Below the pieces are notes generated by a model, which was not told the DNA's origin, searched no databases, and was given only the letters and a program-made list of their open reading frames with translations. 52,998 nt of DNA, taken from positions 1 to 52,998 of the IMG/VR virus record IMGVR_UViG_3300031659_000011; one strand, written 5' to 3'. The stretch is from a virus (taxonomy: Duplodnaviria > Caudoviricetes). Position numbers and translations under genes: made by a program. Of the stretch, positions 15,286-50,294 are shown piece by piece (the stretch's first letter is position 1; the number at the start of each line of letters is the position of its first letter).

Positions 15286-15572
15286 ATCATAATCCTAAAA
15301 ATTGAAAAACAGAAATCGTTATAGCACATAGCTATGGGGTTGTACTAATATTAGTAATACCTTACTATCAGATTTGAAATCCCCGCTAGTACAACTGATG
15401 ATGGCTATGAGTATGCAAGGGTGCGTCCATGTGTCCGCGGAGGGTCCCCCCAAAGAAGTCCAGATGGGACCCTTTATCGCCGTCAGCCGGCGTGCACACC
15501 CCGTCATTTTGCTTTTCGTTTCGCATTCTAAACTTATCATTTAACTTTTATCTTTTAAGGTCCACATTATCC

Positions 15573-15866
15573 CAGCCAATTAGCTATGAGCTATGAGCTC
15601 TGAGCTCTGAGCTATTAGCCCGCAGCCAATTAGCTCTGAGCTAATAAGGGTCAGGGTGTTAAAGGGTCAAGGTGTTAAAGGGTCAAGGTGTTAAAGGGTC
15701 AGGGTGTTAAAGGGTCAGGGCGTTAGCTGGTCCGCCGTTAGCTCTGAGCTCTGAGCTCTGAGCTATTAAGGGTCAGGGTGCTAGCTGGTCCACTGTTAGC
15801 TCTGAGCTATTAAGGGTCAGGGTGCTAGCTGGTCCACTGTTAGCTCTGAGCTCTGAGCTCAGGGCT
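15573..15866. repeat. Composite tandem-repeat array
   Basis: Runs of 7-bp AGCTMTG, five 16-bp AAGGGTCARGGYGTTA units (15646-15725), and a tandem 44-bp unit (about 15757-15844). Confidence 0.95.
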
Positions 15867-16021
15867 AATATAGGGGGTAGCGCTGCAGCGCTTAAACCAC
15901 AGTGGAGCTCAGCAGTGGGCTAGTGGCTATTATAGAGCTAAAAGCCGTACACTAGGGTAGGGGTGGGGGTGAGATCGTCGCTTAGAGAGCAACTGAGAGC
16001 GTCGCTTTTAGCTTGAGTCAT

Positions 16022-16046
16022 AAAAAAAGGTCCGTTAGGACCTTTT
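16022..16046 (-). terminator. Intrinsic terminator closing the early operon
   Basis: Minus strand AAAAGGTCC-TAAC-GGACC-TTTTTTT. Confidence 0.85.
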
Positions 16047-16091: not shown

Positions 16092-16241
16092 TTAGGGGGG
16101 AGGGGTCGGCTCAGCTAGTTTAGCCATATACTTTATAGCGTCGACTTGCTCGGGCCTTACCCATACTTTGAGCTCTACCAGCCCTGCCGCCAGTCTTGCA
16201 TCGCGCAGTCTTTTCATCATAACTTTTTTTGGTATCGGCAT
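16092..16241 (-). CDS. Small basic protein, 49 aa, possible ribbon-helix-helix DNA binder (not in ORF track)
   Basis: MPIPKKVMMKRLRDARLAAGLVELKVWVRPEQVDAIKYMAKLAEPTPPP; GAGGAG RBS. Confidence 0.65.
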   Translation of the reverse strand: MPIPKKVMMKRLRDARLAAGLVELKVWVRPEQVDAIKYMAKLAEPTPPP

Positions 16242-16252
16242 ATCTTATCTCC

Positions 16253-16435
16253 TCAGTTAAATCCAAGCCCGCTATCGTTATATGTAAGGCCGTACTCATC
16301 TACGCCCATATAGCCGAGATCGTTGGCTTTATTTTCGACGGTGTTATTGCTGTCTCCTACGATAATTGCCACAATTACGTTCGTTTCTACGTTGTAAATA
16401 TAGCCCTCCACCGTACCTTTTTTTGGTATTGGCAT
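16253..16435 (-). CDS. Hypothetical protein
   Basis: 60 aa; AAGGAG RBS. Confidence 0.7.
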   Translation of the reverse strand: MPIPKKGTVEGYIYNVETNVIVAIIVGDSNNTVENKANDLGYMGVDEYGLTYNDSGLGFN

Positions 16436-16446
16436 ATCTTATCTCC

Positions 16447-17139
16447 TTATTTAAATTTGATTTGATTTTTAGCGGCGCCATGGGCTGGGAACGCTATTAT
16501 TGTGCTACGCTGTTTGCTGCACATTTGACAGCTAGTGCACGTCACGTCGTCTTTATAAGTGGCAGGGCATATTACTACGTTGTGGCCCGCTGGACTCTTA
16601 AAGTTTGATGTTTGATCTACAGGCACAATAGCGACGACGGGCGCTATATTTAAAGCCATGAGGTCGTCGGCGTGATCTATGTTATTGCCCGACAAATTTA
16701 TCGTGAACCCGTCGCGATTTGCGGCAGCGACTGTGACCCTATTTGCCTTGATTGACATATCGTGATGAGTAAAGCTGATCACCCTGCGGCCTCCGTTTGC
16801 TCGCGTTAGCCGTCGGATCTGCCCTCGGTCCATTACTTCGTCTACGTGATAAAAATCCCCCGAGACATTATGTCTCCAAATAGGCGCGGTCATAGTTTCG
16901 ACTTTGTTAATGAGAGCGTCAAATGTGCCCCCACGCTCCCCCGAGTCTAGCTTATTCCAATTTAGTTTTGTGTGGAATCCCGACTCAGCATAGCAAGGGC
17001 TCTCGTATTTGCTAGTGCTGGGGTTCCACACTCGTTTTAAGGGACAGACTGCAGGACACGTGCTCCGTTGACTGTTAGTGGTGGGCATTGGCCCTGTTTT
17101 AGCGTTTGCTGACTTTTTAACAAATTGCACGAGTTGCAT
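16447..17139 (-). CDS. Cys-rich phage protein (gp88/DUF7227-like, possible Fe-S)
   Basis: SANAKTG, CPxxCP...CYA, WRHNVSGD and CPA...TCxxCxxC...FPAHG motifs. Confidence 0.65.
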   Translation of the reverse strand: MQLVQFVKKSANAKTGPMPTTNSQRSTCPAVCPLKRVWNPSTSKYESPCYAESGFHTKLNWNKLDSGERGGTFDALINKVETMTAPIWRHNVSGDFYHVDEVMDRGQIRRLTRANGGRRVISFTHHDMSIKANRVTVAAANRDGFTINLSGNNIDHADDLMALNIAPVVAIVPVDQTSNFKSPAGHNVVICPATYKDDVTCTSCQMCSKQRSTIIAFPAHGAAKNQIKFK

Positions 17140-17169
17140 TATCTAATCTCCTATTTACTTATAGCTGAT

Positions 17170-17228
17170 GGTCTCATCAGTGCCGCAGAGAGCGGCAGAC
17201 TAAGGGCACTCTGCCCCTAGTTTCGACC
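17170..17228 (-). ncRNA. Hammerhead ribozyme, type II (copy HH1)
   Basis: RNA GGUC-GAAA-CUAGGGGC(AGAGU)GCCCUUAG-UC^UGCCGC(UCUCU)GCGGCA-CUGAUGA-GACC. All core nucleotides and stems I-III are present; predicted cut between 17198 and 17197. Confidence 0.92.
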
Positions 17229-17232
17229 TGTG

Positions 17233-17406
17233 CTACTCTTCTGGGCTATCGCATTTAGTCTCTAACGCAACTAGTGCGTCGCGCTTAGCCAATATAGCTT
17301 CGAGCTCTGGGGTCGGACGCTTGCCCGTTATAATCTCTTCCAGCATGTAGCCCGTTATTAGCTTTTCTTCGATCTCCCAGTACAACTTGCCTAATGTTTT
17401 AATCAT
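17233..17406 (-). CDS. Hypothetical protein, 57 aa, between two ribozymes (not in ORF track)
   Basis: MIKTLGKLYWEIEEKLITGYMLEEIITGKRPTPELEAILAKRDALVALETKCDSPEE; AGGAG RBS. Confidence 0.75.
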   Translation of the reverse strand: MIKTLGKLYWEIEEKLITGYMLEEIITGKRPTPELEAILAKRDALVALETKCDSPEE

Positions 17407-17436
17407 TATCTAATCTCCTATTTACTTATAACTGAT

Positions 17437-17495
17437 GGTCTCATCAGTGCCGCTGATAGCGACAGACTAAGGGCACTCTGCCCCTAGTTTCGACC
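17437..17495 (-). ncRNA. Hammerhead ribozyme, type II (copy HH2)
   Basis: GGUC-GAAA-CUAGGGGC(AGAGU)GCCCUUAG-UC^UGUCGC(UAUCA)GCGGCA-CUGAUGA-GACC; predicted cut between 17465 and 17464. Confidence 0.92.
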
Positions 17496-17498
17496 TCT

Positions 17499-18209
17499 CT
17501 ACACAGATATGGTCAAGCGAGCGTCGGCTAGCACTGACTCTATTTGATCAGTCACGTCTAGCTCACTAGCTACTATTTTAACGATATCGTCTGCGTGACT
17601 AAATATGTCAAAGTCGTCAGCGGGCCTGTAGCCTCCTTCGTACAAAATGCTTACAACTGAGTCCTCAATCATACTCTCATCTATGACGTGATCGCCAAGC
17701 TCAAACTCTCTCGCGCGCTCGTATCCATTATCACTGAGTATGCCTAGCACTCGGTCCTCGAGCTCTTCATCTAGTCCATTATCGCTGATTATGCCTAGCA
17801 CTTGGTCCTCGATCCTTGCCTCTATGTCCTCCGCGTACTCCAGGCACTCGCAGCCGCATCCGTTAGCCTCAATTATACCTAGCACCGCCGCCTCACTGGC
17901 CCCATTAATATAGGGGGTGGTGCGAGGCTCTATAACTTTAAAGCTCAGACCAAAACTGCTGGGGTTAACATGGTCTAGAGTATCTGCGTGCCTGTTTCTA
18001 CGCCCGACCAACTTCCAGTCTTCCATTTTTCCGCCGTATATGCTTGTGTCTATGTCCATTATTATAAAGGGCAGCATAAGCTCACTGTCACTCGCAGAGG
18101 GCCCGCGGACTCCGTCCCCATAATTAAGCATCAAGCCGCTCTGAGTTACTAATGCAACTAGCACCTGTTGACCGTCGTCCTTCCTTAAAAATTTAGTTAT
18201 AGCGCTCAT
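17499..18209 (-). CDS. Hypothetical protein with acidic internal repeats
   Basis: 236 aa; four E-x-x-V-x-x-I-I/L-x-x-x-G units in a D/E-rich C-terminal half. Confidence 0.75.
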   Translation of the reverse strand: MSAITKFLRKDDGQQVLVALVTQSGLMLNYGDGVRGPSASDSELMLPFIIMDIDTSIYGGKMEDWKLVGRRNRHADTLDHVNPSSFGLSFKVIEPRTTPYINGASEAAVLGIIEANGCGCECLEYAEDIEARIEDQVLGIISDNGLDEELEDRVLGILSDNGYERAREFELGDHVIDESMIEDSVVSILYEGGYRPADDFDIFSHADDIVKIVASELDVTDQIESVLADARLTISV

Positions 18210-18421
18210 GACTGCACCTCCGCTGCAATAAAGTCCGCGGTATTTGTAGACGACTCGAGGCTCGGGCTGCTAAGTATCTCAGTGACGTCGCCAACACTCA
18301 TTAGACTTGTATATACATTGCTAGCATAAAAGCCGCCAAACATGTTTGGCGCTCCTTTGTATACCGTTCTCACTTTGTACTTTCCATCTTTCCGTTTGTT
18401 CCCGATTATTGATATTTGCAT
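18206..18421 (-). CDS. Hypothetical protein
   Basis: 71 aa; AGGAG RBS downstream of HH3. Confidence 0.75.
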   Translation of the reverse strand: MQISIIGNKRKDGKYKVRTVYKGAPNMFGGFYASNVYTSLMSVGDVTEILSSPSLESSTNTADFIAAEVQS

Positions 18422-18448
18422 TTTTCTAATCTCCTATTCATGGCTGAT

Positions 18449-18507
18449 GGTCTCATCAGTGCCGCAGAGAGCGACAGACTAGGGGCACTCTGCCCCCAGT
18501 TTCGACC
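18449..18507 (-). ncRNA. Hammerhead ribozyme, type II (copy HH3)
   Basis: GGUC-GAAA-CUGGGGGC(AGAGU)GCCCCUAG-UC^UGUCGC(UCUCU)GCGGCA-CUGAUGA-GACC; predicted cut between 18477 and 18476. Confidence 0.92.
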
Positions 18508-18513
18508 TGTGGG

Positions 18514-18801
18514 CTATCTGGTGGCGGTGGGCGGTCCACCCTCCCATAAATCTAAATCAGCTATGCCCTGTATGTAGTCGGTGGGGTCCTCCATTATCTC
18601 CACCATTTGTCCGTCTTTTATGGCCCAGTATTCTAACTCGGCTGCTACTGCTTCAGCTATCGAGAGATCCCCGTACAGTTCTACCCAGTCCGATCGGTCG
18701 CGGCACTCTAGTGCGCACGCTGCTCCAAATGATACCTCGCGGCGATCAGTTGCTACCGCTTCCATAAATGCAATAAAACTAGATAAGTCATTGTTTTTCA
18801 T
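18514..18801 (-). CDS. Acidic hypothetical protein, first gene of the early operon
   Basis: 95 aa, D/E rich. Confidence 0.65.
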   Translation of the reverse strand: MKNNDLSSFIAFMEAVATDRREVSFGAACALECRDRSDWVELYGDLSIAEAVAAELEYWAIKDGQMVEIMEDPTDYIQGIADLDLWEGGPPTATR

Positions 18802-18835: not shown

Positions 18836-18864
18836 ATTATTACATATAAAGGGTATGTGGTAAA
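18836..18864 (-). promoter_or_regulatory. Putative sigma70 promoter of the ribozyme-containing operon
   Basis: TTTACC-N17-AATAAT in an AT-rich context upstream of the first gene. Confidence 0.5.
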
Positions 18865-19026
18865 GACTTACTATAGTTATTTATGGGCTGGCTGGGGCTG
18901 TTTATATATTGGCGTCGGATTAATGGCGTGCAATAAAGCCACTGGGGCTGCAGCGTTTAGCGCGTAGGTAAGTGGAGGCTCGGCTAGGGTTAGTAGGTTG
19001 GCGGCCCCTCTGTGTGAGCCTAGGAC

Positions 19027-19152
19027 CGCTGTTGGGCTAATCGCTGTTGGGCTAATCGCTGTTGGGCTAATCGCTGTTGGGCTAATCGCTGTTGGGCTAA
19101 TCGCTGTTGGGCTAATCGCTGTTGGGCTAATCGCTGTTGGGCTAATCGCTGT
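19027..19152. repeat. Perfect 15-bp tandem array
   Basis: CGCTGTTGGGCTAAT x8 plus 6 bp. Confidence 0.97.
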
Positions 19153-19179
19153 CTGACAATTGATTGACAATTGCCTGAC

Positions 19180-19206
19180 AGCTCTGAGCTCTGAGCTCTG
19201 AGCTAT
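19180..19206. repeat. 7-bp AGCTCTG tandem repeat
   Basis: AGCTCTG x3 followed by AGCTAT; same unit as in the 15.6-15.9 kb array. Confidence 0.9.
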
Positions 19207-19314
19207 AAGCAAACATCAATAAGTCGGTCGCCCCCTAAAGCCCCATCCAATCATAAATCCACGTGAGAGCACACTCGCTATGTGCCTCTACTAACAAAAA
19301 GACTACAAGAGCCA

Positions 19315-19655
19315 GTGTGTCCTTTTTAAGGCCCTTTAATATAAATATCCGCCCCAAGGGCGGTATATATATATGACACACACCACCGTTTTACTTAGTC
19401 TTTAGATTTCAATGACTTACGTTGGACTCCCGTAACTCCCGCACACCCACCCGCGTCATATAAATCAATGACTTAAAATCAACTCCCGCATCAACAACCT
19501 ATTTTTGGAGGTACATTTACACGTGCGGAGGTTAAAACGTATATAATTCAACAGCTTAAAATCAACTCCCGCATTAAAAGGCCATCCAGCCGCATTAAAA
19601 GGCCATCCAGCCGCACATATGAAGCTAACTACCGCAGTAGTTCCGCACGTAAAAA
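19315..19655. other. Origin-like non-coding region
   Basis: GC hairpin in an AT-rich tract, IHF-consensus sites, a 34-bp imperfect direct repeat and ACTCCCGCA iteron-like motifs. Confidence 0.45.
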
Positions 19656-19696
19656 AGCGCCTTTCTAGACGCCTTTTTACCCATTTATGGCAGGAG

Positions 19697-20173
19697 CTAA
19701 ACACCTCGAACATACACGTGCGGCGACGCACTTTTACCCGCCGATTGACCAGCAGCAGCTGAGTTTATATCCTTGAGCACAGCTTTGAGCGTTAGCTCTG
19801 ACCTTTCTAAATCTGCTTCGAGCGCTATTATCTCAGCATGTACCCACGCGTGCACCTCTGAGTCGGGGCGGACCCGCTCGCTCAATAGCTCCTTAGACTT
19901 GACGCCGTCCTCACTGCCAAGACCAAGTTGGGTGGTTATGTAGTCGTGCACCTCGCCGACATTTTCAAAGCTACCGAGCCTGCCATCATCAACCTCGACG
20001 CCAAACTCGGCCTCTAGATCTAGTGTCAGCTCTATCTCATCGAGTGAGTCAGCGCCCAAATCGTCAGCAAAGCGGCTTGACCGAGTCACGTTGACAACTC
20101 CAAAACTGGAAATGATAATGTTGTCAATGGCTTGAATGACATCGTCCCTACTTCTGTGCAGTGCTTTACTCAT
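19697..20173 (-). CDS. acpP: Acyl carrier protein domain fused to a C-terminal extension
   Basis: F.DDLGADSLD.IEL...LE.EFGVEV.D with an intact phosphopantetheine Ser. Confidence 0.85.
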   Translation of the reverse strand: MSKALHRSRDDVIQAIDNIIISSFGVVNVTRSSRFADDLGADSLDEIELTLDLEAEFGVEVDDGRLGSFENVGEVHDYITTQLGLGSEDGVKSKELLSERVRPDSEVHAWVHAEIIALEADLERSELTLKAVLKDINSAAAGQSAGKSASPHVYVRGV

Positions 20174-33138: not shown

Positions 33139-36100
33139 TTAATCCTCTAGAAAACGCTCGGACCCTTCCATCACTCGCTGCGCTACGCGGTTCATTCTCC
33201 TTTGTATTAGCTGCGATCTCTGCTGCTTAATCTCTGGACTATAATCGCTGCGCAGTACGGCTTCTCTTTCCTTCCGCAGATTCCTTAACGTCTTTTGTGT
33301 CTTCAGGAGAGCTGGGAGTGCACGCAATCTCTTCTTGTTATCACCATGGAGCTCCCTAGCGGCGTCAAGCCCTTGTCTGTCGGTCTTTGCTAACGCTTTT
33401 ATCGTAGTGCTTATCTCTTCGAGGTCGCCTAGTGTGTCATAAAAGTCAGTTACAAACTGCGAAGACTTAACCCTATCGCCTTTGAAGATGGCGCCAATCA
33501 ATGGCATATCAGGGAGGCCTATAGGGGTCTTAGTGGGGTTATCAGACGCCGCTCTTACCGCCATGTCTGCCGCTTTTAAAACGTAGGCCCCTAGCGTTCC
33601 AGTGTAACCCTTCCACAGGTGCTGCAATCTCTTAGGGGAAAGTCCGAGCCACTCAGCTAGGTCAGTGTCCCCTGCTGCCATGGCGAGATCGGAGGTGTAT
33701 GAGTTAAACCGTTGGCTACTAATCTTCCCTTGATCGGATCTACTCTCAATGGGCGTGTCAAAAAACACAGATCTGTTAGCAAACACTTCAGCAATAGGTA
33801 GAGCAAACTGAGGTATAGGGTTCAGCCCTAGCGTAGTTATAAGCCCGTGTACTATCGACCACGTCACTTTTTCGCTGGGTTGAGACTCAGATATCCAAGC
33901 CCGATACATACGCTCAGGTATTGTGCCAGCAATGATACCTATCTCAAAAGGCTTGGGAATTGCCCAGTGTTGTTCGCCCATAAATATGTGCCAGTAGGCA
34001 TCCTTCTCCCAGTCTTGTAGGTTTTTATAGCGCTCATCGTCGTCGTTAAGCGCAGCTAGAGCCACAGAGAATGCGGCTATCTTAGCCATTTGAAGTGCCA
34101 CTAGCGCTGGTCGGTTTGTACCCGCGCGACCTAACTTAGATAGACCCTGTAACCTAGCATTAAGGAAAGGGATCATATCCGTCAGGAATATCATAAGCGC
34201 ATAATTACCCCGAAGGCTGTAGTCCATTAAATCCTTAGACTCGAATAGCACTTGCGCCAAAGGCTTACCTTCCTCTATAGCTGAAGCAGCTGTGGCAATA
34301 CGACTTGAGTTTTCAACCTTGTCACCCGCAGACCTGTAGTGCTGCCAACCTCTGCTCACCGCGTCCTTGCCGTCGAGTAGCATGCTTGCCATCTTAGCTG
34401 GTGTGTCTACTCTGGCGTCCATATGGTCCCCAGCTTGCTGTCTACTTAGCCCGTGTTTTACGAGCTCTCTGCGCATTATCTCAGCGGAAGCCTCAGGGTC
34501 GGTACCGTGGACGTACCCGCCTTGGAAAGACGCTCCGCCAGCCATCAGCATGCGGTGTATTCCGTCTTCTTTAAAGGCGCTTTTTGCACCCTTAATAGCT
34601 GACAAACCGAAGGTCATTCCATCAGGGTTTATTGCCCAAGCGTGTGCCGCGTCACGTATAAAGTTCCTCAACATAAAGTCAGGGCTAGCGGTAACGCCCA
34701 CAGTTAGTAGACCTTTGAAGTATCTGCCTGCTCTCATCGCAACATTTTGAGACCCCTTATATCCTAGGTGGTTTATCGCGCTAATGACCGCTGGGTGGTC
34801 CTCACTCACTCGGTAGTACTCGGTCTTGCCATTCCGCTTAACGCTAAATACGTTAGCGTCGGTGGGGGTGGTGGCAGCCCAGAGCTGCTCATAACCCTCA
34901 GTGCTCAACTTGTTAACCGCGTTGACTATCTTTATTTCTTTAGATGTCTTATCCATACCTAGCCATTCAGCTACTTTAACCGCGTTTTTCCTATCCTTAT
35001 TTATGTAGGCGTTAATAGACGCCTTAGATATGTTTACCTTCTCGTATTCGATGCCTACTTCACTCATAAACTCCGTACCGTTTAGGTTCTCCACCATCTT
35101 TAAAGTGGCGCTGTTCTTTACCGACGCGTCAGTTAGTCTCATCCAGTTAGCTAGTACGTTCTCGAGTAGGTTGCCTGTAGACGCCTCGCTACCTGTTAAC
35201 ATCTTAATACCTGATGTCTGGTTAGCTAGGCCGCGGGCCGCGTTGGGGGATACGATACCCGCCCCATCTTCAGTCTGCCTAAAGAAAGGCACATACCATT
35301 CACTCTCCCATTCAGCTCTGGAATCTGGGTTTATTAACCCAGCCTCTTGGGCGAAGTCCAACATAGCTACATTGATTGCCATGTACTCTTCTTTAGCGGT
35401 CTCAAACTTAGCAGAGTTATCTGAGGTCTTCTTAGACTTTAGAACGTCTATATCCTCTCGGGTTAAATTGTGTTCTTTGCCCTCGCGCATAAGCTCTTCA
35501 GCTCGGTTTCCTGCCATCCACATGAACCAGCTATCCGCATCAGCGCCTAGGGAGGTTAGTACATCGAGCATCCCCTTAGTTTTGTAGTCCCCAACAGGTA
35601 CACCATCCTCCCACTTAAGGGCCCCGTGGTGCATGACGTGGGTCATCATGTCAGCAATACCTGTAGCTAGCCTGGCTGCCACGTAGGCGCTGCCCGCGAA
35701 ATCGTTAGCCGCAATGCCTTTACGCAAGAAGTCTTCAGCCTTCTTCAAACCGATGAGGCCATCAAATATGCCTTCGTACATACTGTCACCAACGTCGTCG
35801 ATGACGTTTATAACACCTGCGTCTATTATGTCGGCTATAGCCTTCACTAGACCACTACTGCGCCGCTTACCCATGCCCAGCTTATCTATCAGCTTACGGT
35901 TATCAGTATCTAGGACCCTATCCTTAGGGGGTTTGCGCGAGAATAATATATCAGGGCCCTCAGCATTATCTGCCTGAGTGTCCTTAGACCCTTCTGTATC
36001 AGACTTAGGACTACTCGATCTCATGAGGTCGAAGTTATCTGCGCTATCGGAATTGAACTCAGCGTTAATGGATCTTATGTCTGAGGGGTTAAACATTATG

Positions 36101-39100
36101 CGTTGAGGTACTTCCTCGCCAGCTAGAGCTACGCCTTCGTCACTTAAGGTGTCCACACCTATGTAACCTTCAGCAATGTACCCTTCTATCTCGGCCTGCA
36201 GGGCCTCAAGATCCGTGGTTTCATCTTGGAGTCGCTTGCCAAACTTGTTAGCTTCATTCCAACTTAGCTTTTTAAACTTACCCTCTTTTATATAGACGGG
36301 TATTACCTGACCGTCACCGTAGTCGGTTTGACCCGCGTATGCGCTGTTAACAGACTCTACATAGTTATTAAAGCTAGCGTCGGAGTCCGAGGGTTTAAGG
36401 TGGATCTTATCAAATTTGTAATCATAGTCTTGACTGTAGTCGGTTTCAGCGTTTGTCACAAAATCAAAACCTTGTTTTGTAAACTTGAAGACCCCTTCGT
36501 CCGTCGCCCAAATTCTGCCTACTGCGCGCTCATCGCCCATACTAATATCGTCGAGGACTCCGCTGTAGGAAACTTCGCTACTTGTTTTAGATTCAGGCAG
36601 GGTAGTCTTGCCTACCTTACCTAGCTCCTTCTCTAATCGCCTATTCATCTTAAGTTCATACATGCCGCCATACGATGAGGCTTCATCAGGCGAAGACGTT
36701 AGGAAGGTAAGGCCTCTAAAACCTTTGAAGTTGGTTTTAGTACCATGGTACCAAGTCTGACTGACATCAAAACCCATACTAACCGCTCGAGCCATGCGCC
36801 CTTTCTTAGACATGCCAAGGCGGCCTCTTCGGGAATGAGATACCTTGCGGCTGCCAGCGTTGTCAGTGTTAAATTCTGCAAAGATTGAACGTATAGTAGA
36901 TGTGTCGAATATAGCGTACTGATGGCTACCCTCTGCCATGTATTCGTTAAGTGCGCCAGACGAGCTCCACCTTCCGATGGGTCCAAGGTCTGTTATGTTG
37001 TTAAACTGCACGCCATCGACCCCGTGGCTGCGGGCTAACCTAGCTATCTGATTAGTGTCCATGCCTGCTGCAGATATCTCTGATCCGTCGGGCATTTCTA
37101 GGATTAGAAAGTCTTCTTTATCATTCCAGTTTGTGCTTCCAAAATCAACTACAGCAAACCCATCAGTCTTGAGGACAACAGGTACTACGGCTTTGTAGGC
37201 GTAAGTATTAGCCTGTAGAGTTTCACCCGCGGCCCACTGGCCCGTCCCTGCTCGGTGCATTTCACCCCTGTTAGGGTCAAACTCTTTTATATCAATACCT
37301 TCTCGCAACCCTATAAAGGCTTTAGCTACATAGCCCATCTCCGCTGCCCTAGCCATCCGAGAAGTCTTAGACATATAAGAGCTAGACTTTCTAGAATAAA
37401 CGGGGGCCGCCTTTTCAGGCTTCCGCATTTTATCAGGGGCGTACTCCATGTGGACGGTATCTGGTTTTCCTTTATTAAACTCTGAGAACACAGACTTATC
37501 CCACCCGATGGGCGCGTCACTTTGGTCCCAACTATCTCTACTTGACTCTACAAACCCTGCTGTTTTATAGATGTCGGGGAGCACAGTGTCAAAGGTATCT
37601 AGCTTGGTTCCGCCTTGCTCCACTGCTAGCGACATCATGCTGTATAAATTGCCACCGCCGTTTGTAAACACGCTGACAATAGTCCCGTCTTCCTTAATAG
37701 CAAAACCAGATGACTGATCCTTAGTTAAGAACACCTTCATATCGGAATACTCTTCTACTGAGTACACAGGTATTGATGCCCCAAACTCTAAATTGCTTTT
37801 AGCGTTTTCAATTTTATCTATAAACACCTGAGAGTTTTCTGGTGTTTGTTCAATTTCTACTAGCTCAACTGCTACGGCCTCCGCGGAGCCTAGTACGCCT
37901 TTGTAGTTGGTAGTTGGTTGGTGTATTAACCCCCGAATTCCTCCCAGAGTTCCTGCGTTCGCGGCCTTGTAAGTCCGTGTCTTGTTGACGCCTCCCCTAT
38001 CGGATCTATGCTCCCAGAGGATGTTTTGCTGGAGGAATTTCTCGCGTTGCTTGCCATCAAGTCCACTAGCTCCTGCTTGGACGCTGTCTTGCCCTGAGGT
38101 TGTGGCGTCTGGTCGTGCTGCTGTTGTGCGTCTTCTGGAATCATTTGTGTCTACCGCCTTGTTTATGGTTTTAGTATCTATGCCTTGATCTTTGGCTAAG
38201 CCAATTGCTGCGTTAGCATAGTCAGGGGCCTCATCATCTGTATAGCCCTCCTCTGAATCTTCCGCAGATTTAGCTGCGTCATATAATCTTTTCTCTGGGT
38301 ACCACAACAGTGCCTGCAAATCAGCCATAGTCATCTCGGCATTGCCGTCGCTCTGCATGTCAGCAAGAACGCCATCAAAAACCCCGCGCATCCACGATCT
38401 CTCTGAGCCATTCTGAGGGGCCTCTTTCTGCCCGTCGAGGTACCCAGCTAGTGAGTTTCCACTGGTTCGGATGCTCACGCCCGATTTAGACTGGTTAAAG
38501 ATGGTACGCAAAGCTTTAGACGTAGACATCTTCTGAATTTGCACAGCTACTTCTTCAATATTAGTTACCTTAAAAACCTCTTTACCCTTTGCGTTAACGC
38601 TGGGTTCTATCTTGAAATCCATGCGCAATGCTTTCTGAAATGAGGCTAACTTAGTAGGGGTTTTAGCTAACTTTAATATATGCTTCTCTAGCTCTTTTCC
38701 TTTAGACGCTACCATATCAGGCCTGCGCTCTATGAGACTACCTGTCCATCTGCCCCAAGTTCGCATCAGCCAACGGTCTATGGTCAATTGGTCAAAGTGG
38801 CCGTTCAGGTTGGCGAAGAAACCATTGCCAATCTTAGGGCCGAGAGTCATCGCCCCAAACACCTCAGTGCTCTGCAGCTCTCCAGTTACTTTAAACCCTA
38901 GTTTAGTTATTTGGCTAACTGAGAATTTACTTATCATGAATTCGCGGTAGGCGTCTATGCCATACTCAGCTGACTTCTCATTGAACTGAGCTAAGCTATC
39001 GTTGATTGCGCTCTGAGCCTTTCCCGCTTCTAAGTTAGTGGGCATCTGCCCTGTCTTCTTATAGTGGGAGTACACCCTTTCAGCTAGCTCAAAGTTTTTC

Positions 39101-40509
39101 TTAACCTTTAAGCCATTAGAGGTAACGGCCAGAGCAAATGTAAATGCGAACTTAGCATTCTCATCAGTAGCAATTTCGGGGTGGATCGTACTTAAAACTG
39201 CGAGGGCTTTGCTAACTGTGTTGTCATACCATCCGATAGCATTTGCGTTGCTTTTCAGGGCTTGCTTTGCGTCTTTGACCCCTAATTGTATGAGGAACTC
39301 CTTAACTTCAGGGGTAGTTTCAGACAGATTTATCCCTTGGCCTTCTACTCTTTGCTGCAGAATTTCTTTTAACTGTCGGATGTTTTTTAACTGAGTCTTC
39401 CCCGCCAGCTCGAATGATTTCTCAAGTGATGTTAGGCTTAGGTCGGAGGCGACAGGCTTGGCATCTGGAATTCGGCGGCTATTAACCACCATGGGTTTAC
39501 CCTTCGAGTCAAAGTCTCTAGTTGTGCGAAGCGCTAGAGTAACGGACCCGTCGCTGTTAACCACAGTTCCCGTGTATGTGTCTTGAGTAAACCTTGCTGC
39601 GGATATTAACAGACTATTAATTTCATTCTGGTCTAAGTCTCCCCCTAAACCGTGACGAGATAACCACAGGCGTAAGGCCTGAATGGCCTTCTTGAGTGGG
39701 CCATACTTGGCTGTTATCTCCGACATATGGGCTAGCACTTCTCGTGCTTCGGTTACTGGGTCGTTCTCTAACGCGTAAGACCCGTCCTCATTGGTGTATG
39801 CCTTTTTTAGAAAGGCGATTACGTCCATGGTAGGCTTGTGGTTAGTACGCTTTAGGTACGATATTTGGTTTACCAGCTGAGCGAAGGCGCGCTTCCCTAG
39901 CATAGTTTCTAGGCCTAAGTGGCCCACGACTTCGTGTCCCAATATTTCTATAGCTTCCTTACGGCCCTGTATAGAACCAGCTACTAGTATGATTACAGGT
40001 ACATTCTTGCCATCTTTATCTTTAATTATTGCGTATCCCCCTCCAACGTCATCGGGGTTTTTAACACCTGTTAGTTCGTCAAGATCTGCAACGGTTTGTA
40101 CTATCCTTATGTCTATCCACTTAGCTAGTTTACTCCTAGCCTTTTTAGTCCACTGACTGATTTCAACTATAGAGCTGCCGTTAGCTTTAGCCCTTTTGTA
40201 CACTACTTTAGTATCCTCAGGTTCCTTTTTTGCGGCAGGCTTAGCTTTAGTAGCTGACTTAGGTTTAAGGAGGCCTTTGACGGTTAGCTTATTTAGGTAT
40301 CCGCCTTGGCTCTTTACAAAACTAGCTAGGTCATTTCGCTCAGATAGGGCGACTTCAAACGCTGCGTTAGTGGCATGTATGTACATCTCCGCAGAGGATA
40401 TCCCTTCCGCAAAATCTTTTGCTTCCGACAGCGCTTCTTTAAACGCAGTACGGTCTGAGGAGTCAAGATTATTTAATAAATCAAAACACTTAGCTTTTGA
40501 TGACGCCAT
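33139..40509 (-). CDS. Large polyvalent internal virion protein with C-terminal LPD38 domain
   Basis: HEVVGH peptidase motif, an HhH-glycosylase-like region, a GNAT-like region, two ART-like regions (one with WYHGT), and IPFLNARLQG...IPKPFEIG (LPD38). Confidence 0.8.
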   Translation of the reverse strand: MASSKAKCFDLLNNLDSSDRTAFKEALSEAKDFAEGISSAEMYIHATNAAFEVALSERNDLASFVKSQGGYLNKLTVKGLLKPKSATKAKPAAKKEPEDTKVVYKRAKANGSSIVEISQWTKKARSKLAKWIDIRIVQTVADLDELTGVKNPDDVGGGYAIIKDKDGKNVPVIILVAGSIQGRKEAIEILGHEVVGHLGLETMLGKRAFAQLVNQISYLKRTNHKPTMDVIAFLKKAYTNEDGSYALENDPVTEAREVLAHMSEITAKYGPLKKAIQALRLWLSRHGLGGDLDQNEINSLLISAARFTQDTYTGTVVNSDGSVTLALRTTRDFDSKGKPMVVNSRRIPDAKPVASDLSLTSLEKSFELAGKTQLKNIRQLKEILQQRVEGQGINLSETTPEVKEFLIQLGVKDAKQALKSNANAIGWYDNTVSKALAVLSTIHPEIATDENAKFAFTFALAVTSNGLKVKKNFELAERVYSHYKKTGQMPTNLEAGKAQSAINDSLAQFNEKSAEYGIDAYREFMISKFSVSQITKLGFKVTGELQSTEVFGAMTLGPKIGNGFFANLNGHFDQLTIDRWLMRTWGRWTGSLIERRPDMVASKGKELEKHILKLAKTPTKLASFQKALRMDFKIEPSVNAKGKEVFKVTNIEEVAVQIQKMSTSKALRTIFNQSKSGVSIRTSGNSLAGYLDGQKEAPQNGSERSWMRGVFDGVLADMQSDGNAEMTMADLQALLWYPEKRLYDAAKSAEDSEEGYTDDEAPDYANAAIGLAKDQGIDTKTINKAVDTNDSRRRTTAARPDATTSGQDSVQAGASGLDGKQREKFLQQNILWEHRSDRGGVNKTRTYKAANAGTLGGIRGLIHQPTTNYKGVLGSAEAVAVELVEIEQTPENSQVFIDKIENAKSNLEFGASIPVYSVEEYSDMKVFLTKDQSSGFAIKEDGTIVSVFTNGGGNLYSMMSLAVEQGGTKLDTFDTVLPDIYKTAGFVESSRDSWDQSDAPIGWDKSVFSEFNKGKPDTVHMEYAPDKMRKPEKAAPVYSRKSSSYMSKTSRMARAAEMGYVAKAFIGLREGIDIKEFDPNRGEMHRAGTGQWAAGETLQANTYAYKAVVPVVLKTDGFAVVDFGSTNWNDKEDFLILEMPDGSEISAAGMDTNQIARLARSHGVDGVQFNNITDLGPIGRWSSSGALNEYMAEGSHQYAIFDTSTIRSIFAEFNTDNAGSRKVSHSRRGRLGMSKKGRMARAVSMGFDVSQTWYHGTKTNFKGFRGLTFLTSSPDEASSYGGMYELKMNRRLEKELGKVGKTTLPESKTSSEVSYSGVLDDISMGDERAVGRIWATDEGVFKFTKQGFDFVTNAETDYSQDYDYKFDKIHLKPSDSDASFNNYVESVNSAYAGQTDYGDGQVIPVYIKEGKFKKLSWNEANKFGKRLQDETTDLEALQAEIEGYIAEGYIGVDTLSDEGVALAGEEVPQRIMFNPSDIRSINAEFNSDSADNFDLMRSSSPKSDTEGSKDTQADNAEGPDILFSRKPPKDRVLDTDNRKLIDKLGMGKRRSSGLVKAIADIIDAGVINVIDDVGDSMYEGIFDGLIGLKKAEDFLRKGIAANDFAGSAYVAARLATGIADMMTHVMHHGALKWEDGVPVGDYKTKGMLDVLTSLGADADSWFMWMAGNRAEELMREGKEHNLTREDIDVLKSKKTSDNSAKFETAKEEYMAINVAMLDFAQEAGLINPDSRAEWESEWYVPFFRQTEDGAGIVSPNAARGLANQTSGIKMLTGSEASTGNLLENVLANWMRLTDASVKNSATLKMVENLNGTEFMSEVGIEYEKVNISKASINAYINKDRKNAVKVAEWLGMDKTSKEIKIVNAVNKLSTEGYEQLWAATTPTDANVFSVKRNGKTEYYRVSEDHPAVISAINHLGYKGSQNVAMRAGRYFKGLLTVGVTASPDFMLRNFIRDAAHAWAINPDGMTFGLSAIKGAKSAFKEDGIHRMLMAGGASFQGGYVHGTDPEASAEIMRRELVKHGLSRQQAGDHMDARVDTPAKMASMLLDGKDAVSRGWQHYRSAGDKVENSSRIATAASAIEEGKPLAQVLFESKDLMDYSLRGNYALMIFLTDMIPFLNARLQGLSKLGRAGTNRPALVALQMAKIAAFSVALAALNDDDERYKNLQDWEKDAYWHIFMGEQHWAIPKPFEIGIIAGTIPERMYRAWISESQPSEKVTWSIVHGLITTLGLNPIPQFALPIAEVFANRSVFFDTPIESRSDQGKISSQRFNSYTSDLAMAAGDTDLAEWLGLSPKRLQHLWKGYTGTLGAYVLKAADMAVRAASDNPTKTPIGLPDMPLIGAIFKGDRVKSSQFVTDFYDTLGDLEEISTTIKALAKTDRQGLDAARELHGDNKKRLRALPALLKTQKTLRNLRKEREAVLRSDYSPEIKQQRSQLIQRRMNRVAQRVMEGSERFLED

Positions 40510-48206: not shown

Positions 48207-50294
48207 TTATCCTACTGCCACCATATCCTCAGCTAAACTGTCGCTATATAAGGGTAGGTCATCTTGGTTATTAGCCGCGTTTACTTGTGCGGCTTTCCCG
48301 TTCAGGATTTCAAGCATCTCATCCCACGTTTCCTTAACATATGGCTTAGTGTGTATGGGGTGGTCAGAATCAAAAACTGCATCATCGCTGAATACTTCAC
48401 CATTAACGCCGTACAGACGATGGTTAGTGGTATCCATAGTGTAGTAAGTATCAAAAGGATCAACTAGCTCGGATCGGTCTGCTTCAAATACATACTTCCA
48501 AGTTCCGTCCTCTAAGACAAAATGCTCGTCTGTCATAATGGTGCCGTTGTAGTTATAAAAGTCTCTGCTACTTAGACCCGTTCTAGTTTTCAGAACCGTA
48601 CCCCCCTGCACCTTATCACCAACCTTAATATCTTCGACTACTTTGTAGGCGCCATCGGCCATGCAGAATAGAGTGCCTTTAGCAAAACAGCCTGAGCCAT
48701 CTCCGCCACCGACTCCACCACTGCCACCACGACCACCACCATAGTTGCCACCGCCTCCATTATCGTCTCCACCTCCATTATATCCGCCGCCCTCTCCATC
48801 TCCGCCGCCGCTATCACCGCCACCGCCCCCATTAGATGGAGGCGGTGGCGGAGGCGCAGGTGTGGGGTCCCCAGCTTCAGGGGGTCTAGGAGTAATATCC
48901 GTTCCGTTGCTAAACTCAAAAGTAGCGTTAGCTGAATATAACAGTGTAGCTATCATCTTAGACGCTACTTCAGGGTCGTCGCTGTTGGCTATGATAGTCC
49001 CCATATCAGCATACAGCTGCATAACTATATTGCCGTTTATTGAGTCCATGTTCCTGTCGCTAGCCCACTTAGCCTCTAAAGCTGCCACTTCTGCGGCTAG
49101 CTGAGAGTCCATACGCATTAACTGCGCATCTAAGTCGGCTTGGTAAGCCCCAAATTCTTGGTCGTTCATGGCCCCAGCGTATAGCTTAGCGGCGTTATTT
49201 TCAGCTTCTGCATTGAACTTATTAGTCGCGTTTATTTCCGACGCGTTAAAAGCTGCAGTGTCATTTTCTTCTGTAACATTAAACTTGTTAATGTCTGTTT
49301 CAGTATTGATATTGAACTGGTCAGTAGCGTTACCCTCACCAGCATTAAACTTATTCGTGTCAGTTAAAAGACCCGCGTTAAACTTACTGGTGTCTTGGTT
49401 AGCTAATGCGTTAACTCTGTCGGCTTCGTTAGTATATCCTAAGTTAGCTAAATCCATCTCAGCTATCATCTGCGCGTCTTGCTGCGCGATAGGTAGAGAG
49501 GCGTCGATAGCCGCACCATGTGCTGCGCCTACCGCCATACTTGAGTTAAGCATTCCCCTAGCGTTCGACTGCTGGTTAGCTGCGGCCTGAGCCCGTTGCA
49601 TATAAGCGCTGTCGGAGCTTAGCAGCCCCGTCATGCGGTCTTCAACGGTGCTAGATACGTTCCCTTGGGAGGCATCATATCCCGCGTACTCCGATACCCC
49701 TGCCTCCGCGGTGTTGACTTCTGCCGTGCTCGCGGGGTTTACCTGACCAGCTTCAACAGTCTGAGCAGGGGCTGAGGTTGTAACCTCAGCTTTAGTGGCG
49801 CTGGGGGCCTTGACTTGTACGCTTCCTGCATCTAGCTTTGGCACCTCGTACCTATTGCCACCACCTGAGTCAGGTGGGGGAGGCGCGGGTGGGGTGTCTG
49901 CTGGTCCGCTATCATATACAGGTCCCCAAGTGTAGGGCGGGTGACCTAAATCATTCCTAGGGATAGCCGGCATAGGATAACCCTTGCTAGGAGTAGCCGG
50001 CATAGGATAACTCTTAGGAGGATTATGGGGCAAAGGATAATTCTTATGGGGCATCTCACGGGGAGGTGGCGAAGGCCTCCCTACCGTGAACTCGTTAGTA
50101 AAGGTGGGGGCCTTAGGTTTAGCCGCCCGAACTGGCGCTGGAGCGGGAGCCGCAACAGCCTTAGGGGGCGATACGGGCGCATGTCTAGTCTTCTGAGATG
50201 GGCCCAATGGGCGCCCGTCCGGACTTTGGCGTCTCCCGTTACTGTTGCGGGGCGGCGACGGGGCTGCGTATGTTTCTTTAGGATGTCTAGGCAT
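48207..50294 (-). CDS. Virion-module protein with N.FNA repeats, Pro/Gly linkers and a C-terminal Hint domain
   Basis: G/CFAKGT...DG..K.VEDIKVGD.V, TDEH block B, and YTMDT.NH motifs. Confidence 0.75.
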   Translation of the reverse strand: MPRHPKETYAAPSPPRNSNGRRQSPDGRPLGPSQKTRHAPVSPPKAVAAPAPAPVRAAKPKAPTFTNEFTVGRPSPPPREMPHKNYPLPHNPPKSYPMPATPSKGYPMPAIPRNDLGHPPYTWGPVYDSGPADTPPAPPPPDSGGGNRYEVPKLDAGSVQVKAPSATKAEVTTSAPAQTVEAGQVNPASTAEVNTAEAGVSEYAGYDASQGNVSSTVEDRMTGLLSSDSAYMQRAQAAANQQSNARGMLNSSMAVGAAHGAAIDASLPIAQQDAQMIAEMDLANLGYTNEADRVNALANQDTSKFNAGLLTDTNKFNAGEGNATDQFNINTETDINKFNVTEENDTAAFNASEINATNKFNAEAENNAAKLYAGAMNDQEFGAYQADLDAQLMRMDSQLAAEVAALEAKWASDRNMDSINGNIVMQLYADMGTIIANSDDPEVASKMIATLLYSANATFEFSNGTDITPRPPEAGDPTPAPPPPPPSNGGGGGDSGGGDGEGGGYNGGGDDNGGGGNYGGGRGGSGGVGGGDGSGCFAKGTLFCMADGAYKVVEDIKVGDKVQGGTVLKTRTGLSSRDFYNYNGTIMTDEHFVLEDGTWKYVFEADRSELVDPFDTYYTMDTTNHRLYGVNGEVFSDDAVFDSDHPIHTKPYVKETWDEMLEILNGKAAQVNAANNQDDLPLYSDSLAEDMVAVG

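Follow-up and report, generated by a model that had tools for sequence, protein, structure and literature searches.

The record IMGVR_UViG_3300031659_000011 (52,998 nt, analysed over its whole length and called the window below) comes from an uncultured marine podophage with an SU10-type portal and adaptor. Its minus strand, the coding strand of the region, carries three 59-nt type II hammerheads between the genes of one short operon (Table 1), which has replication genes on one side and lysis and packaging genes on the other. The initial annotation had called this operon early; no evidence for this was found, and a sigma-70-like promoter scan did not rise above chance (22 sites, 18.8 expected). 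A terminator scan likewise did not exceed chance, and the hairpin at 16046-16022, which probably ends the hammerhead unit, was not among its sites. The predicted hairpin at 19649-19680 separates the unit from the upstream ACP-like gene.

Table 1. Features of the hammerhead operon and its borders, in the direction of transcription.
Feature	Position	Strand	Details
Terminator-like hairpin with U-run	19649..19680	-	3' of upstream ACP-like gene; -18.3 kcal/mol, z -4.8
Sigma-70-like promoter match	18836..18864	-	TTTACC-17-AATAAT with TG; 35 nt upstream of first cistron; consensus only
Piece 1: 95-aa ORF, first cistron	18514..18801	-	No family match
Hammerhead 3, type II	18449..18507	-	Stem III differs from copies 1 and 2 by G-U/G-C swaps; predicted cleavage 18477/18476
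Piece 2: 71-aa ORF (18421-18206) and overlapping 236-aa ORF (18209-17499)	17499..18421	-	No family match
Hammerhead 2, type II	17437..17495	-	Loop I UAUCA; predicted cleavage 17465/17464
Piece 3: 57-aa ORF	17233..17406	-	No family match; 267 nt between predicted cuts
Hammerhead 1, type II	17170..17228	-	Stem II GGUC/GACC; stem III 10 bp, GAG loop; GUC site; stem I 6 bp, loop UCUCU; core CUGAUGA; predicted cleavage 17198 (C17)/17197
Piece 4: DUF7227 protein, 230 aa	17139-16447	-	PF23872, E 2.5e-76; whole piece 16092..17139
Piece 4: small ORFs	16435-16253, 16241-16092	-	Common RBS cassette (D8), no hammerhead
Terminator-like hairpin	16022..16046	-	A-run, GGUCC-UAAC-GGACC, U7; -15.4 kcal/mol, z -4.7
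Alternative core-tail hairpin CUGAUG-AGAC-CAUCAG	17165..17180; also 17432-17447, 18444-18459	-	Core C3-G8 with C10.4 and tail AUCAG
93-nt repeated cassette (family D4)	17137..17229	-	A(-1), hammerhead, tail, A/U-rich leader, AGGAG, ATG
Other D4 copies (repeat analysis)	17404-17496; 18416-18508	-	96% identical; 76% identical without gaps

In all three copies the elements follow the order GGUC-GAAA-(stem III)-GUC-(stem I)-CUGAUGA-GACC, with stems I and III closed by loops and stem II open to the flanks, as is typical of the type II topology. The core reads CUGAUGA (C3 U4 G5 A6 N7 G8 A9) between stems I and II, and GAAA...GUC supplies G12 A13 A14 between stems II and III, the A15.1-U16.1 pair and H17 (3/3 copies for each). 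The core-adjacent pairs G10.1-C11.1, U1.1-A2.1 and A15.1-U16.1 are canonical in 3/3 copies; mispairs at these positions (10.1-11.1, 1.1-2.1, 15.1-16.1) are disallowed by the published hammerhead criterion (PMC3088659, methods). The pattern CGAAAC..GTC..CTGATGAG has three matches in the window, all on the minus strand and at the expected places, and none in each of 100 dinucleotide shuffles. As isolated 59-mers, all three copies have the three-way junction as their minimum-energy fold (-28.6, -25.7 and -28.3 kcal/mol; z -3.9, -3.0 and -3.2).

The copies differ in 5 of 65 alignment columns: two in loop I, one in stem I (C-G/U-G) and two in stem III (A-U/G-U and G-U/G-C), with pairing preserved in all three varying pairs. 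This agrees with the initial annotation, which had reported three 59-nt copies at these positions that differ only in loop I or without loss of pairing, and whose predicted 5' ends (17197, 17464 and 18476) are correct by count from the copy alignment. A kissing interaction of loop I with loop III (CAGAG/CUCUG) was discarded as a candidate, since it is not retained in copy 2. The TAG stops at 17235-17233, 17501-17499 and 18516-18514 lie 4, 3 and 6 nt ahead of stem II, and AGGAG stands 8-9 nt upstream of each ATG that follows, so the spacing first described (3-6 nt after a TAG, before an AGGAG) holds; from the AUCAG tail to the next start codon there are 22-25 nt. Since the three hammerheads are repeats of one another within the 93-nt unit, they point to a single origin and not to three independent chance events. 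The DNA contigs from the sequencing runs break at the repeats; the ribozymes are without internal variant, and these contigs have no bearing on cleavage or covariation.

The initial annotation had also proposed a search with the Rfam hammerhead models. At gathering scores no Rfam family has a match in the window, RF02276 (Hammerhead_II, 37 bits) included, and at E<=10 RF02276 matches one of the three copies, hammerhead 3, with 23.7 bits, which counts against a functional reading. Of 50 related hammerheads in 11 loci among the matches listed, the same model recovers no more than 3, and is therefore blind, at its threshold, to the present subclass, which has no pseudoknot between loop I and the 3' tail. 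This pseudoknot is part of the type II consensus in the majority of sequences, but not in all, and is critical for fast cleavage in the type II example studied by Perreault 2011 (PMC3088659). When a helix of at least 4 bp was looked for, the best one had 2 bp in 3/3 window copies and 4-5 bp in 3/3 Rfam-positive controls, and the pseudoknot was rejected for the window copies. With RF02276 and the hammerheads of Perreault 2011 (PMC3088659) they share the permuted topology, the 13-nt core, the GUC site and a setting in phages or prophages, but their tail pairs with the core and not with loop I; stem II has 4 bp, against 2 bp in the Rfam consensus line, and loop I has 5 nt, against ~10. Neither the missing pseudoknot nor the pairing of the AUCAG tail with the core had been part of the initial annotation.

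All sets of viral relatives used here (111, 200, 172, 103, 80 and 39 sequences) are sets among the matches listed. The covariance model R3, built from 111 hammerheads of 38 further viral contigs and from no window sequences, scored hammerhead 1 at 63.8 bits (E 1.6e-16), hammerhead 2 at 62.2 (E 4.9e-16) and hammerhead 3 at 62.6 (E 3.6e-16), while its best score elsewhere on both strands of the 52,998 b, with filters off, was 13.3 bits; because the window copies served as seeds for the models, the family was not recruited in a fully independent way. With model R1, hammerhead 1 reached 98.7 bits. In alignment A2, 98.5% of 1356 cells are paired, against 62.3% after shuffling (0/500 reach the observed value), and although fitting the alignments to the model is a step that favours pairing, slid controls gave only 29-50%. 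Both sides change in 18 of its 20 pairs. Alignment A3, which has no window rows, gave 98.7% paired against 60.7% shuffled, with two-sided change in 15 of 18 pairs, among the matches listed. The A15.1-U16.1 pair is kept in 103/103 distinct relatives among the matches listed. In the 39 relatives where the core was not forced by the search pattern, N7 is U in 29, C in 9 and A in 1, H17 is C in 35, A in 3 and U in 1, never G, and the remaining core positions are kept in 38-39 of 39; this variation at N7 and H17, as read from the alignment, is the known hammerhead signature.

The placement of the relatives is also regular. Of the 71 with an upstream ORF among the matches listed, 63 have its stop codon at -1 to +6 nt relative to stem II. 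Other contigs carry same-strand arrays of up to 12 copies (among the matches listed), in which Rfam-recognised type II hammerheads with the pseudoknot occur together with pseudoknot-less relatives. Among the 103 distinct relatives in the matches listed, 94 have A at -1, 87 a stem I of 6-7 bp, 82 a loop I of 5 or 3 nt, and 39 the AUCAG tail, many hammerheads of the same arrays being without it. These sequences indicate a pseudoknot-less subclass that is common in uncultured phages and has a 4-bp stem II, a 17-nt stem-loop I, A at -1 and often AUCAG. The window copies have its 4-bp stem II, a stem-loop I of 6 bp and 5 nt, A at -1 and the placement after a stop.

When relatives were searched for the same layout, as proposed at the outset, the intergenic placement was found to recur (68 of 80 relatives among the matches listed lie between ORFs of at least 40 codons, with an ORF end at most 60 nt upstream and a start at most 90 nt downstream), whereas no close relative of the operon itself was found across the blastn, pattern and protein searches. 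The operon had no blastn match in 50,697 phage records, and a stem III-specific pattern had no match in the viral contigs; its single match in a metagenome contig was set aside as chance, there being no hammerhead at that site. The protein searches gave one DUF7227 relative (L156, 50% identity) with no hammerhead beside it, and the 236-aa protein had no relative in the metagenome contigs. By portal, the closest cultured phages are Vibrio podophages (36% identity), of which 0/3 had an R1 match in a search run without a positive control. A scan of genome contigs gave 18 pattern matches among the matches listed, of which R1 at E<=0.01 confirmed five, each of them in a MAG.

We consider it probable that the three elements are functional type II hammerheads which split the minus-strand transcript into four mRNAs, and infer that they cleave in vivo. 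Their assignment to type II, on the coding strand and in the intergenic gaps of one transcription unit, is supported by the sequence, the ORF map and the covariance models, and the four pieces of the initial annotation follow arithmetically from three GUC sites. It is very unlikely that they are inactive look-alikes, i.e. intergenic hairpins that stabilise mRNA, or DNA palindromes bound by protein, with no cutting. Such a role would suit the Rfam score below gathering, the absent pseudoknot, the predicted dominance of an inactive fold, the fact that CTGATG-AGAC-CATCAG is also a DNA palindrome, and the inactivity in vitro of 4/18 consensus hammerheads in Perreault 2011 (PMC3088659). However, 13/13 core positions are canonical, N7 and H17 vary exactly as in active hammerheads, the pattern is absent from 100 shuffles, arrays are shared with Rfam-grade hammerheads, and a plain hairpin has no need of a CUGAUGA/GAAA junction.

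It is improbable, though less so, that the hammerhead, leader and RBS form selfish or recombination-prone modules that duplicate, or mark the joints of accessory genes, with cleavage as a side effect of little benefit to the phage. The identity of the 93-nt cassettes within the window is in keeping with this, as are stem III or stem I sequences that are more alike within a contig than between contigs, closest cultured relatives that have no hammerheads, and flanked genes that are small, mostly family-less and not constant (as also in PMC3088659). Against it, more than 100 diverse copies show strong purifying and compensatory selection on core, geometry and helices, the distances to the stop and start codons are closely maintained, and no transposase or recombinase accompanies the hammerheads in the window.

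If the three elements are functional hammerheads, a transcript of ~2.85 kb, probably running from a promoter at about 18860 down to the terminator at about 16020, would be cut after C17 of each GUC, at 18477/18476, 17465/17464 and 17198/17197, to yield four mRNAs. Each upstream piece would extend ~35 nt past its stop codon, so as to end in the 10-bp hairpin of stem III and carry a 2',3'-cyclic phosphate there, and each downstream piece would begin with a 5'-OH and be paired from its first nucleotide in stem I. The leftover core and tail would refold into a second, adjacent hairpin (CUGAUG/CAUCAG), leaving the A/U-rich leader and AGGAG free. We further infer effects of cleavage on translation and on mRNA stability, to which the 5'-OH ends may contribute, as the initial annotation had proposed. 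The predicted ends have the chemistry expected of ligation substrates, and Perreault 2011 (PMC3088659) raised the possibility of such a role; circularisation or splicing of the hammerhead-bounded pieces (1012 nt and 267 nt) by a host RtcB-type ligase or by the ribozyme is nevertheless the least likely explanation considered here. Spliced or circular products were looked for in that study and went undetected (PMC3088659), dissociation is favoured by a stem II of 4 bp and by the core-tail hairpin, and the window proteins scanned (a subset of ORFs) showed no ligase.

The core-tail hairpin cannot form together with stem II and the active core. By nearest-neighbour energies it lies 2.0 kcal/mol below the hammerhead fold in 3/3 copies, which counts against a functional reading; its probability is 0.947, compared to 0.047-0.048 for stem II, and in a context of 102-104 nt it is the minimum-energy fold. 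The alternative fold is the more stable one in 154 of 172 relatives among the matches listed (mean -1.72, sd 1.08 kcal/mol). In 200 distinct viral hammerheads among the matches listed, N7 covaries with the tail, with U7-A in 89/103 and C7-G in 92/97, and this covariation shows that the hairpin is maintained by selection. In the C7 class the hairpin is stronger and stem II is slightly GC-richer in each GC stratum; as both are stronger, the ddG stays similar (-1.56 vs -1.90). The 3' cleavage products are predicted to fold, from nucleotide 1 on, into two adjacent hairpins, which fits the functional reading.

Since the AUCAG tail hairpin competes with the active fold, cleavage may not be simply constitutive; the hairpin may lock the 3' product, or it may gate cleavage. 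In a gated ribozyme it would be the OFF state before cleavage, and cutting would occur only when it is opened or prevented, by 30S loading on the leader 22-25 nt downstream, ribosome release 3-6 nt upstream of stem II, Mg2+ or temperature, so that intercistronic cleavage would be coupled to translation or conditions. We regard this as possible but doubtful. The greater stability of the alternative fold, by ~2 kcal/mol in 3/3 copies and with a narrow spread among the relatives listed, is consistent with gating, as are the covariation, the stop codons that abut stem II, and the similar ddG of the C7 class, which hints at balancing. However, the energy model ignores stabilisation of the hammerhead by tertiary contacts and Mg2+, the narrow spread is partly imposed by the search pattern, identical covariation is expected if the hairpin matters only after cleavage, many hammerheads of the same arrays are without the tail, and the parts of PMC3088659 and PMC6765202 covered describe no natural allosteric hammerhead. 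We tentatively hypothesize that the AUCAG hammerheads are two-state devices, in which a selected hairpin, its energy tuned to within ~2 kcal/mol of the active fold, would gate cleavage between cistrons, most plausibly through ribosomes at the adjacent stop codon or RBS, and would then lock the 3' product.

Several features of the operon have precedents. The RNase III sites of the T7 early transcript, a putative analogue named in the initial annotation, are also cut between cistrons, so that single-gene mRNAs have terminal hairpins, but there a host protein enzyme leaves 5'-phosphate and 3'-OH ends; the phage RNA is instead predicted to cleave itself, leaving 5'-OH and 2',3'-cyclic phosphate ends. 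Clusters of same-strand hammerheads flank single genes or short blocks in prophages of C. scindens, A. caulinodans and A. tumefaciens, where processing into gene-length mRNAs was proposed; in vitro cleavage was shown for three triple arrangements and, for that of A. tumefaciens, in E. coli as well (PMC3088659). Both the layout and the idea of cutting a polycistron are thus already in print (Perreault 2011, PMC3088659), the present case differing in its uncultured marine podophage, its near-identical cassettes that include the RBS and its being known from sequence alone. In D. vulgaris, three type II hammerheads lie near phage-like or hypothetical genes, and both cleavage fragments were captured in vivo by cyPhyRNA-seq, so such elements do cleave inside cells (PMC8782182); they share the type and the phage-like context, but reach the Rfam model. 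The synthetic insulator RiboJ joins a satellite-RNA hammerhead to a 23-nt hairpin, and uncleaved mRNA was modelled as decaying faster (PMC7536230). The phage cassettes resemble it in the order of ribozyme, hairpin and RBS and in the same defined 5' UTR that cleavage would give each downstream gene; the RiboJ hairpin is separate from the core (PMC7536230), while the phage hairpin is built from the core itself and therefore competes with catalysis.

No printed description of the core-tail hairpin was found; supplements, including the Perreault 2011 alignments, were outside this coverage and may bear on the point. In the parts of the Perreault 2011 main text covered, the terms 'ribosome', 'Shine-Dalgarno', 'stop codon' and 'misfold' are absent, and the passages with 'alternative' or 'inactive' do not describe the hairpin. 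The three copies are additional hammerheads of a known type, with a core-tail regulatory detail that is possibly new.

The window is a compact example, with three near-identical ribozyme-leader-RBS cassettes in one short operon. As the large pseudoknot-less subclass is invisible to the Rfam type II model at its threshold, phage arrays of this kind (up to 12 per operon among the matches listed) are under-annotated. A 2019 review calls for more work to define the purpose of bacterial and phage hammerheads (PMC6765202). The covarying hairpin that sequesters the core offers a testable handle on this, separating regulated cleavage from mere refolding afterwards, and hammerheads that carry it are a natural counterpart of the synthetic RiboJ design. 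The gated reading, if true, would make these the first gated hammerheads of natural origin and would give phage hammerheads a concrete function.

On the minus strand, GGUC-GAAA, a 10-bp hairpin, GUC, a 6-bp hairpin and CUGAUGA-GACC occur in this order three times (hammerhead copies HH1, HH2 and HH3; see table). The fixed-letter pattern CGAAAC..GTC..CTGATGAG matches solely these sites in the window, with no match in 100 shuffles, and the three-way junction is the minimum-energy structure of every 59-mer folded alone. The copies vary in 5 of 65 aligned columns, 2 in loop I and 3 in helices, and all 3 helix differences preserve a standard pair. Each copy belongs to a 93-nt repeat that continues into an A/U-rich leader, AGGAG and the start ATG of the gene that follows; the copies are therefore duplicates of one cassette. 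The initial annotation had reported three type II hammerheads here, an observation that is confirmed: its coordinates and strand agree with the sequence and the pattern match, its list of differences agrees with the alignment of the copies, and its stop-codon distances of 4, 3 and 6 nt are correct, as are the positions of its predicted 5′ ends (17197, 17464 and 18476).

The Rfam search that had been proposed as a check gave no match in the window at the gathering score; at a permissive E-value, the type II model matched HH3 alone (23.7 bits vs. gathering 37). These scores fall below threshold because the copies depart from the Rfam type II consensus, which has a very short stem II, a loop I of ~10 nt and a 3′ tail pairing with loop I, whereas in the window copies stem II is 4 bp, loop I is 5 nt and loop I/tail complementarity is ≤2 bp, compared to 4-5 bp in three Rfam-positive controls. 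The features that define a hammerhead were therefore tested directly: in all three copies, 13 of 13 core positions and the three core-adjacent pairs are canonical, and the element order is that of type II.

To recover relatives, IMG/VR was scanned for stem II and the tail as in the window, leaving stems I and III free. The 39 elements found, in 34 contigs, have stems I and III that are unrelated in sequence but always keep their pairing. A covariance model built from the window copies (R1) gave 81 matches in 36 sources, one of which (E 0.034) looks false; in 11 tested loci, 3 of 50 R1 matches were reported by Rfam at gathering score. In the R1-match alignment, 98.5% of 1356 cells are paired vs. 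62.3% in shuffles (0 of 500 reach 98.5%) and 29-50% with partners slid, and both sides change in 18 of 20 pairs. In the 39 copies that had not been forced by any pattern, N7 is U in 29, C in 9 and A in 1, position 17 is C in 35, A in 3 and U in 1, never G, and the remaining core positions are conserved in 38-39. Such variability at N7 and position 17 is textbook for active hammerheads. To lessen circularity, the model was rebuilt (R3) on 111 matches drawn from 38 other contigs, with zero window rows. Under R3 the three copies reach 63.8, 62.6 and 62.2 bits (E about 1e-16), and the best other match in the window has 13.3 bits (both strands, filters off). The R3 alignment is 98.7% paired vs. 60.7% in shuffles; the margins are large, despite recruitment of the family with models seeded from the window and alignments fitted to structure. 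Of 103 relatives, 87 have a stem I of 6-7 bp, 82 a loop I of 5 or 3 nt and 94 an A at −1; U occupies position 1 of loop I. This constant geometry points to another tertiary contact that may replace the missing loop I/tail pseudoknot.

In a 102-104-nt context, a hairpin, CUGAUG-AGAC-CAUCAG, displaces stem II in the minimum-energy fold, pairing core C3-G8 with the last base of stem II plus the tail AUCAG. In each of the three copies, this core-tail hairpin fold is favoured over the hammerhead fold by 2.0 kcal/mol (predicted probability 0.947, vs. 0.047-0.048 for stem II). In the hammerhead structure, such a helix is incompatible with C3-G8 and the U-turn, which makes the hairpin fold an inactive state. 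N7, as the sole free core base, gives a test of the core-tail pairing, for which viral hammerheads with CUGA[Y]GAG-NNN-[N]UCAG were collected, excluding the window's own genome (at least 200 distinct sequences in at least 179 loci). Among the matches listed, tail A/G/C/U counts are 89/10/2/2 for U7 (n = 103) and 3/92/2/0 for C7 (n = 97), and Fisher's test of tail A/G against U/C at N7 gives 2e-39; with a single sequence kept per locus, the counts become 81/8/2/2 and 3/81/2/0. In these same listed matches, the two bases following the tail show little association with N7 (p 0.1 and 0.002), and both classes contain diverse stem II sequences. The tail is also seen, in a shifted register, behind stems II of other lengths (loci L016, L078, L119 and L143), and is not universal as AUCAG (39 of 103 distinct rows). 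Of the 214 sequences collected among the matches listed, 172 combine a 4-bp stem II with a 6-bp hairpin. Their ΔΔG (hairpin minus hammerhead) is −1.72 ± 1.08 kcal/mol, a spread narrowed by the search pattern itself, and the hairpin is favoured in 154 of the 172. No printed description of the core-tail hairpin was found in the article texts searched, and the hairpin seems new.

The window record is an IMG/VR virus, 66% complete, whose sequence is present in marine metagenome DNA runs. It encodes an SU10-type portal and adaptor, large and small terminase, an Enc34-type SSB, family A polymerase, primase-helicase and MazG; the nearest cultured relatives are Vibrio podophages (36% portal identity). 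Elsewhere it encodes a 2456-aa protein (33139-40509) whose C-terminus carries an LPD38 'large polyvalent protein' domain (PF18857, E 1.6e-38) and a 695-aa protein (48207-50294) with a weak, below-cut-off match (PF05203, E 1.5e-5; residues 536-564) to Hint, a domain associated with inteins and homing endonucleases.

Features of the hammerhead operon and its surroundings
Feature	Coordinates	Strand	Evidence
HH1	17228-17170	minus	sequence reading
HH2	17495-17437	minus	sequence reading
HH3	18507-18449	minus	sequence reading
Promoter-like site, probable start of unit	18864-18836	minus	consensus match only
Hairpin + U7, probable end of unit	16046-16022	minus	predicted hairpin
Terminator-like hairpin closing upstream ACP-like gene	19680-19649	minus	predicted hairpin
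Cys-rich DUF7227 protein, gene after HH1	16447-17139	minus	PF23872 E 2.5e-76
15-nt AGCGATTAGCCCAAC, x9 tandem	18997-19176	minus	repeat analysis
21-nt repeat, x2	19569-19610	minus	repeat analysis
About 37-nt repeat, x3	19402-19577	minus	repeat analysis
7-mer AGCTCAG runs	19182-19224	minus	repeat analysis

The hammerheads lie in a compact minus-strand unit in the order ORF of 95 aa, HH3, ORFs of 71 and 236 aa, HH2, ORF of 57 aa, HH1, DUF7227 (230 aa) and two small ORFs. DUF7227 homologues (~45% identity) occur in 181 phage records; 166 of these are Pseudomonas phages, and cyanophages are also represented. The two small ORFs (60 and 49 aa; 16092-16435) both begin MPIPKK behind a common 48-nt RBS cassette with no hammerhead in front, a second type of translation-start cassette duplicated within this operon. 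Upstream, a ~800-nt minus-strand stretch (18870-19650) holds no convincing gene and is dense in repeats that suggest an iteron/origin or protein-binding array; its 111-aa 'ISPTA' ORF is probably an artefact of the repeat. A second field (15560-15900) contains AGCTCAG 7-mer runs, a 16-nt unit x5 and 44-58-nt units, and thus 7-mer arrays bracket the operon on both sides. Beyond the first field, a 158-aa protein (19697-20173) contains an acyl-carrier-protein (PP-binding) domain (residues 29-79) and extends well beyond it at the C-terminus.

The same layout, which the initial annotation had proposed to seek in relatives, recurs there: 68 of 80 hammerheads lie between two same-strand ORFs. Of the 71 with an upstream ORF, 63 have its stop codon placed −1 to +6 nt from stem II; stem II starts at the G of TAG in 21 cases. 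Four IMG/VR contigs (L132, L069, L123 and L146) hold operons with 8-12 same-strand type II hammerheads within 4-6 kb, the largest array having 12 copies in about 5.6 kb (L132), followed by 11 in L069 and 9 in L123. The flanked genes are small and mostly without family, apart from one Ltp-type lipoprotein and one DUF6011 protein. A viral contig with two hammerheads (L124) also has a tmRNA match (RF00023, 6081-6146; 53.6 bits vs. gathering 47) spanning 66 nt only.

Perreault et al. 2011 (PMC3088659) describe type II hammerheads, propose processing of long phage transcripts and report in vitro cleavage for three triple arrangements, a 2019 review (PMC6765202) repeats this hypothesis while calling the purpose unresolved, and D. 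vulgaris type II hammerheads near phage-like genes are reported to cut in vivo (PMC8782182). The layout and interpretation proposed for the window are therefore the published view in a new phage. The proposal that the ribozymes cut an early polycistron is partly supported and already published in kind; nothing in the window supports 'early'.

The best-supported reading, which we consider probable, is self-cleavage after C17 at three sites, yielding four mRNAs. The stem III hairpin, bearing a cyclic phosphate, would form the 3′ end of the upstream pieces, and downstream pieces would start with a 5′-OH, paired from nucleotide 1. The 4-bp stem II would then release, allowing the spent core to form a second, adjacent hairpin, followed by a standard leader and the RBS. 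The core-tail hairpin may also gate cleavage beforehand, which we consider less likely than not. The likeness of such processing to T7 RNase III sites is by analogy only. The proposed arrangement is similar to RiboJ, an engineered insulator that combines a hammerhead with a hairpin (PMC7536230). The three ribozymes add to a known type, and the core-tail hairpin is possibly a new regulatory detail.
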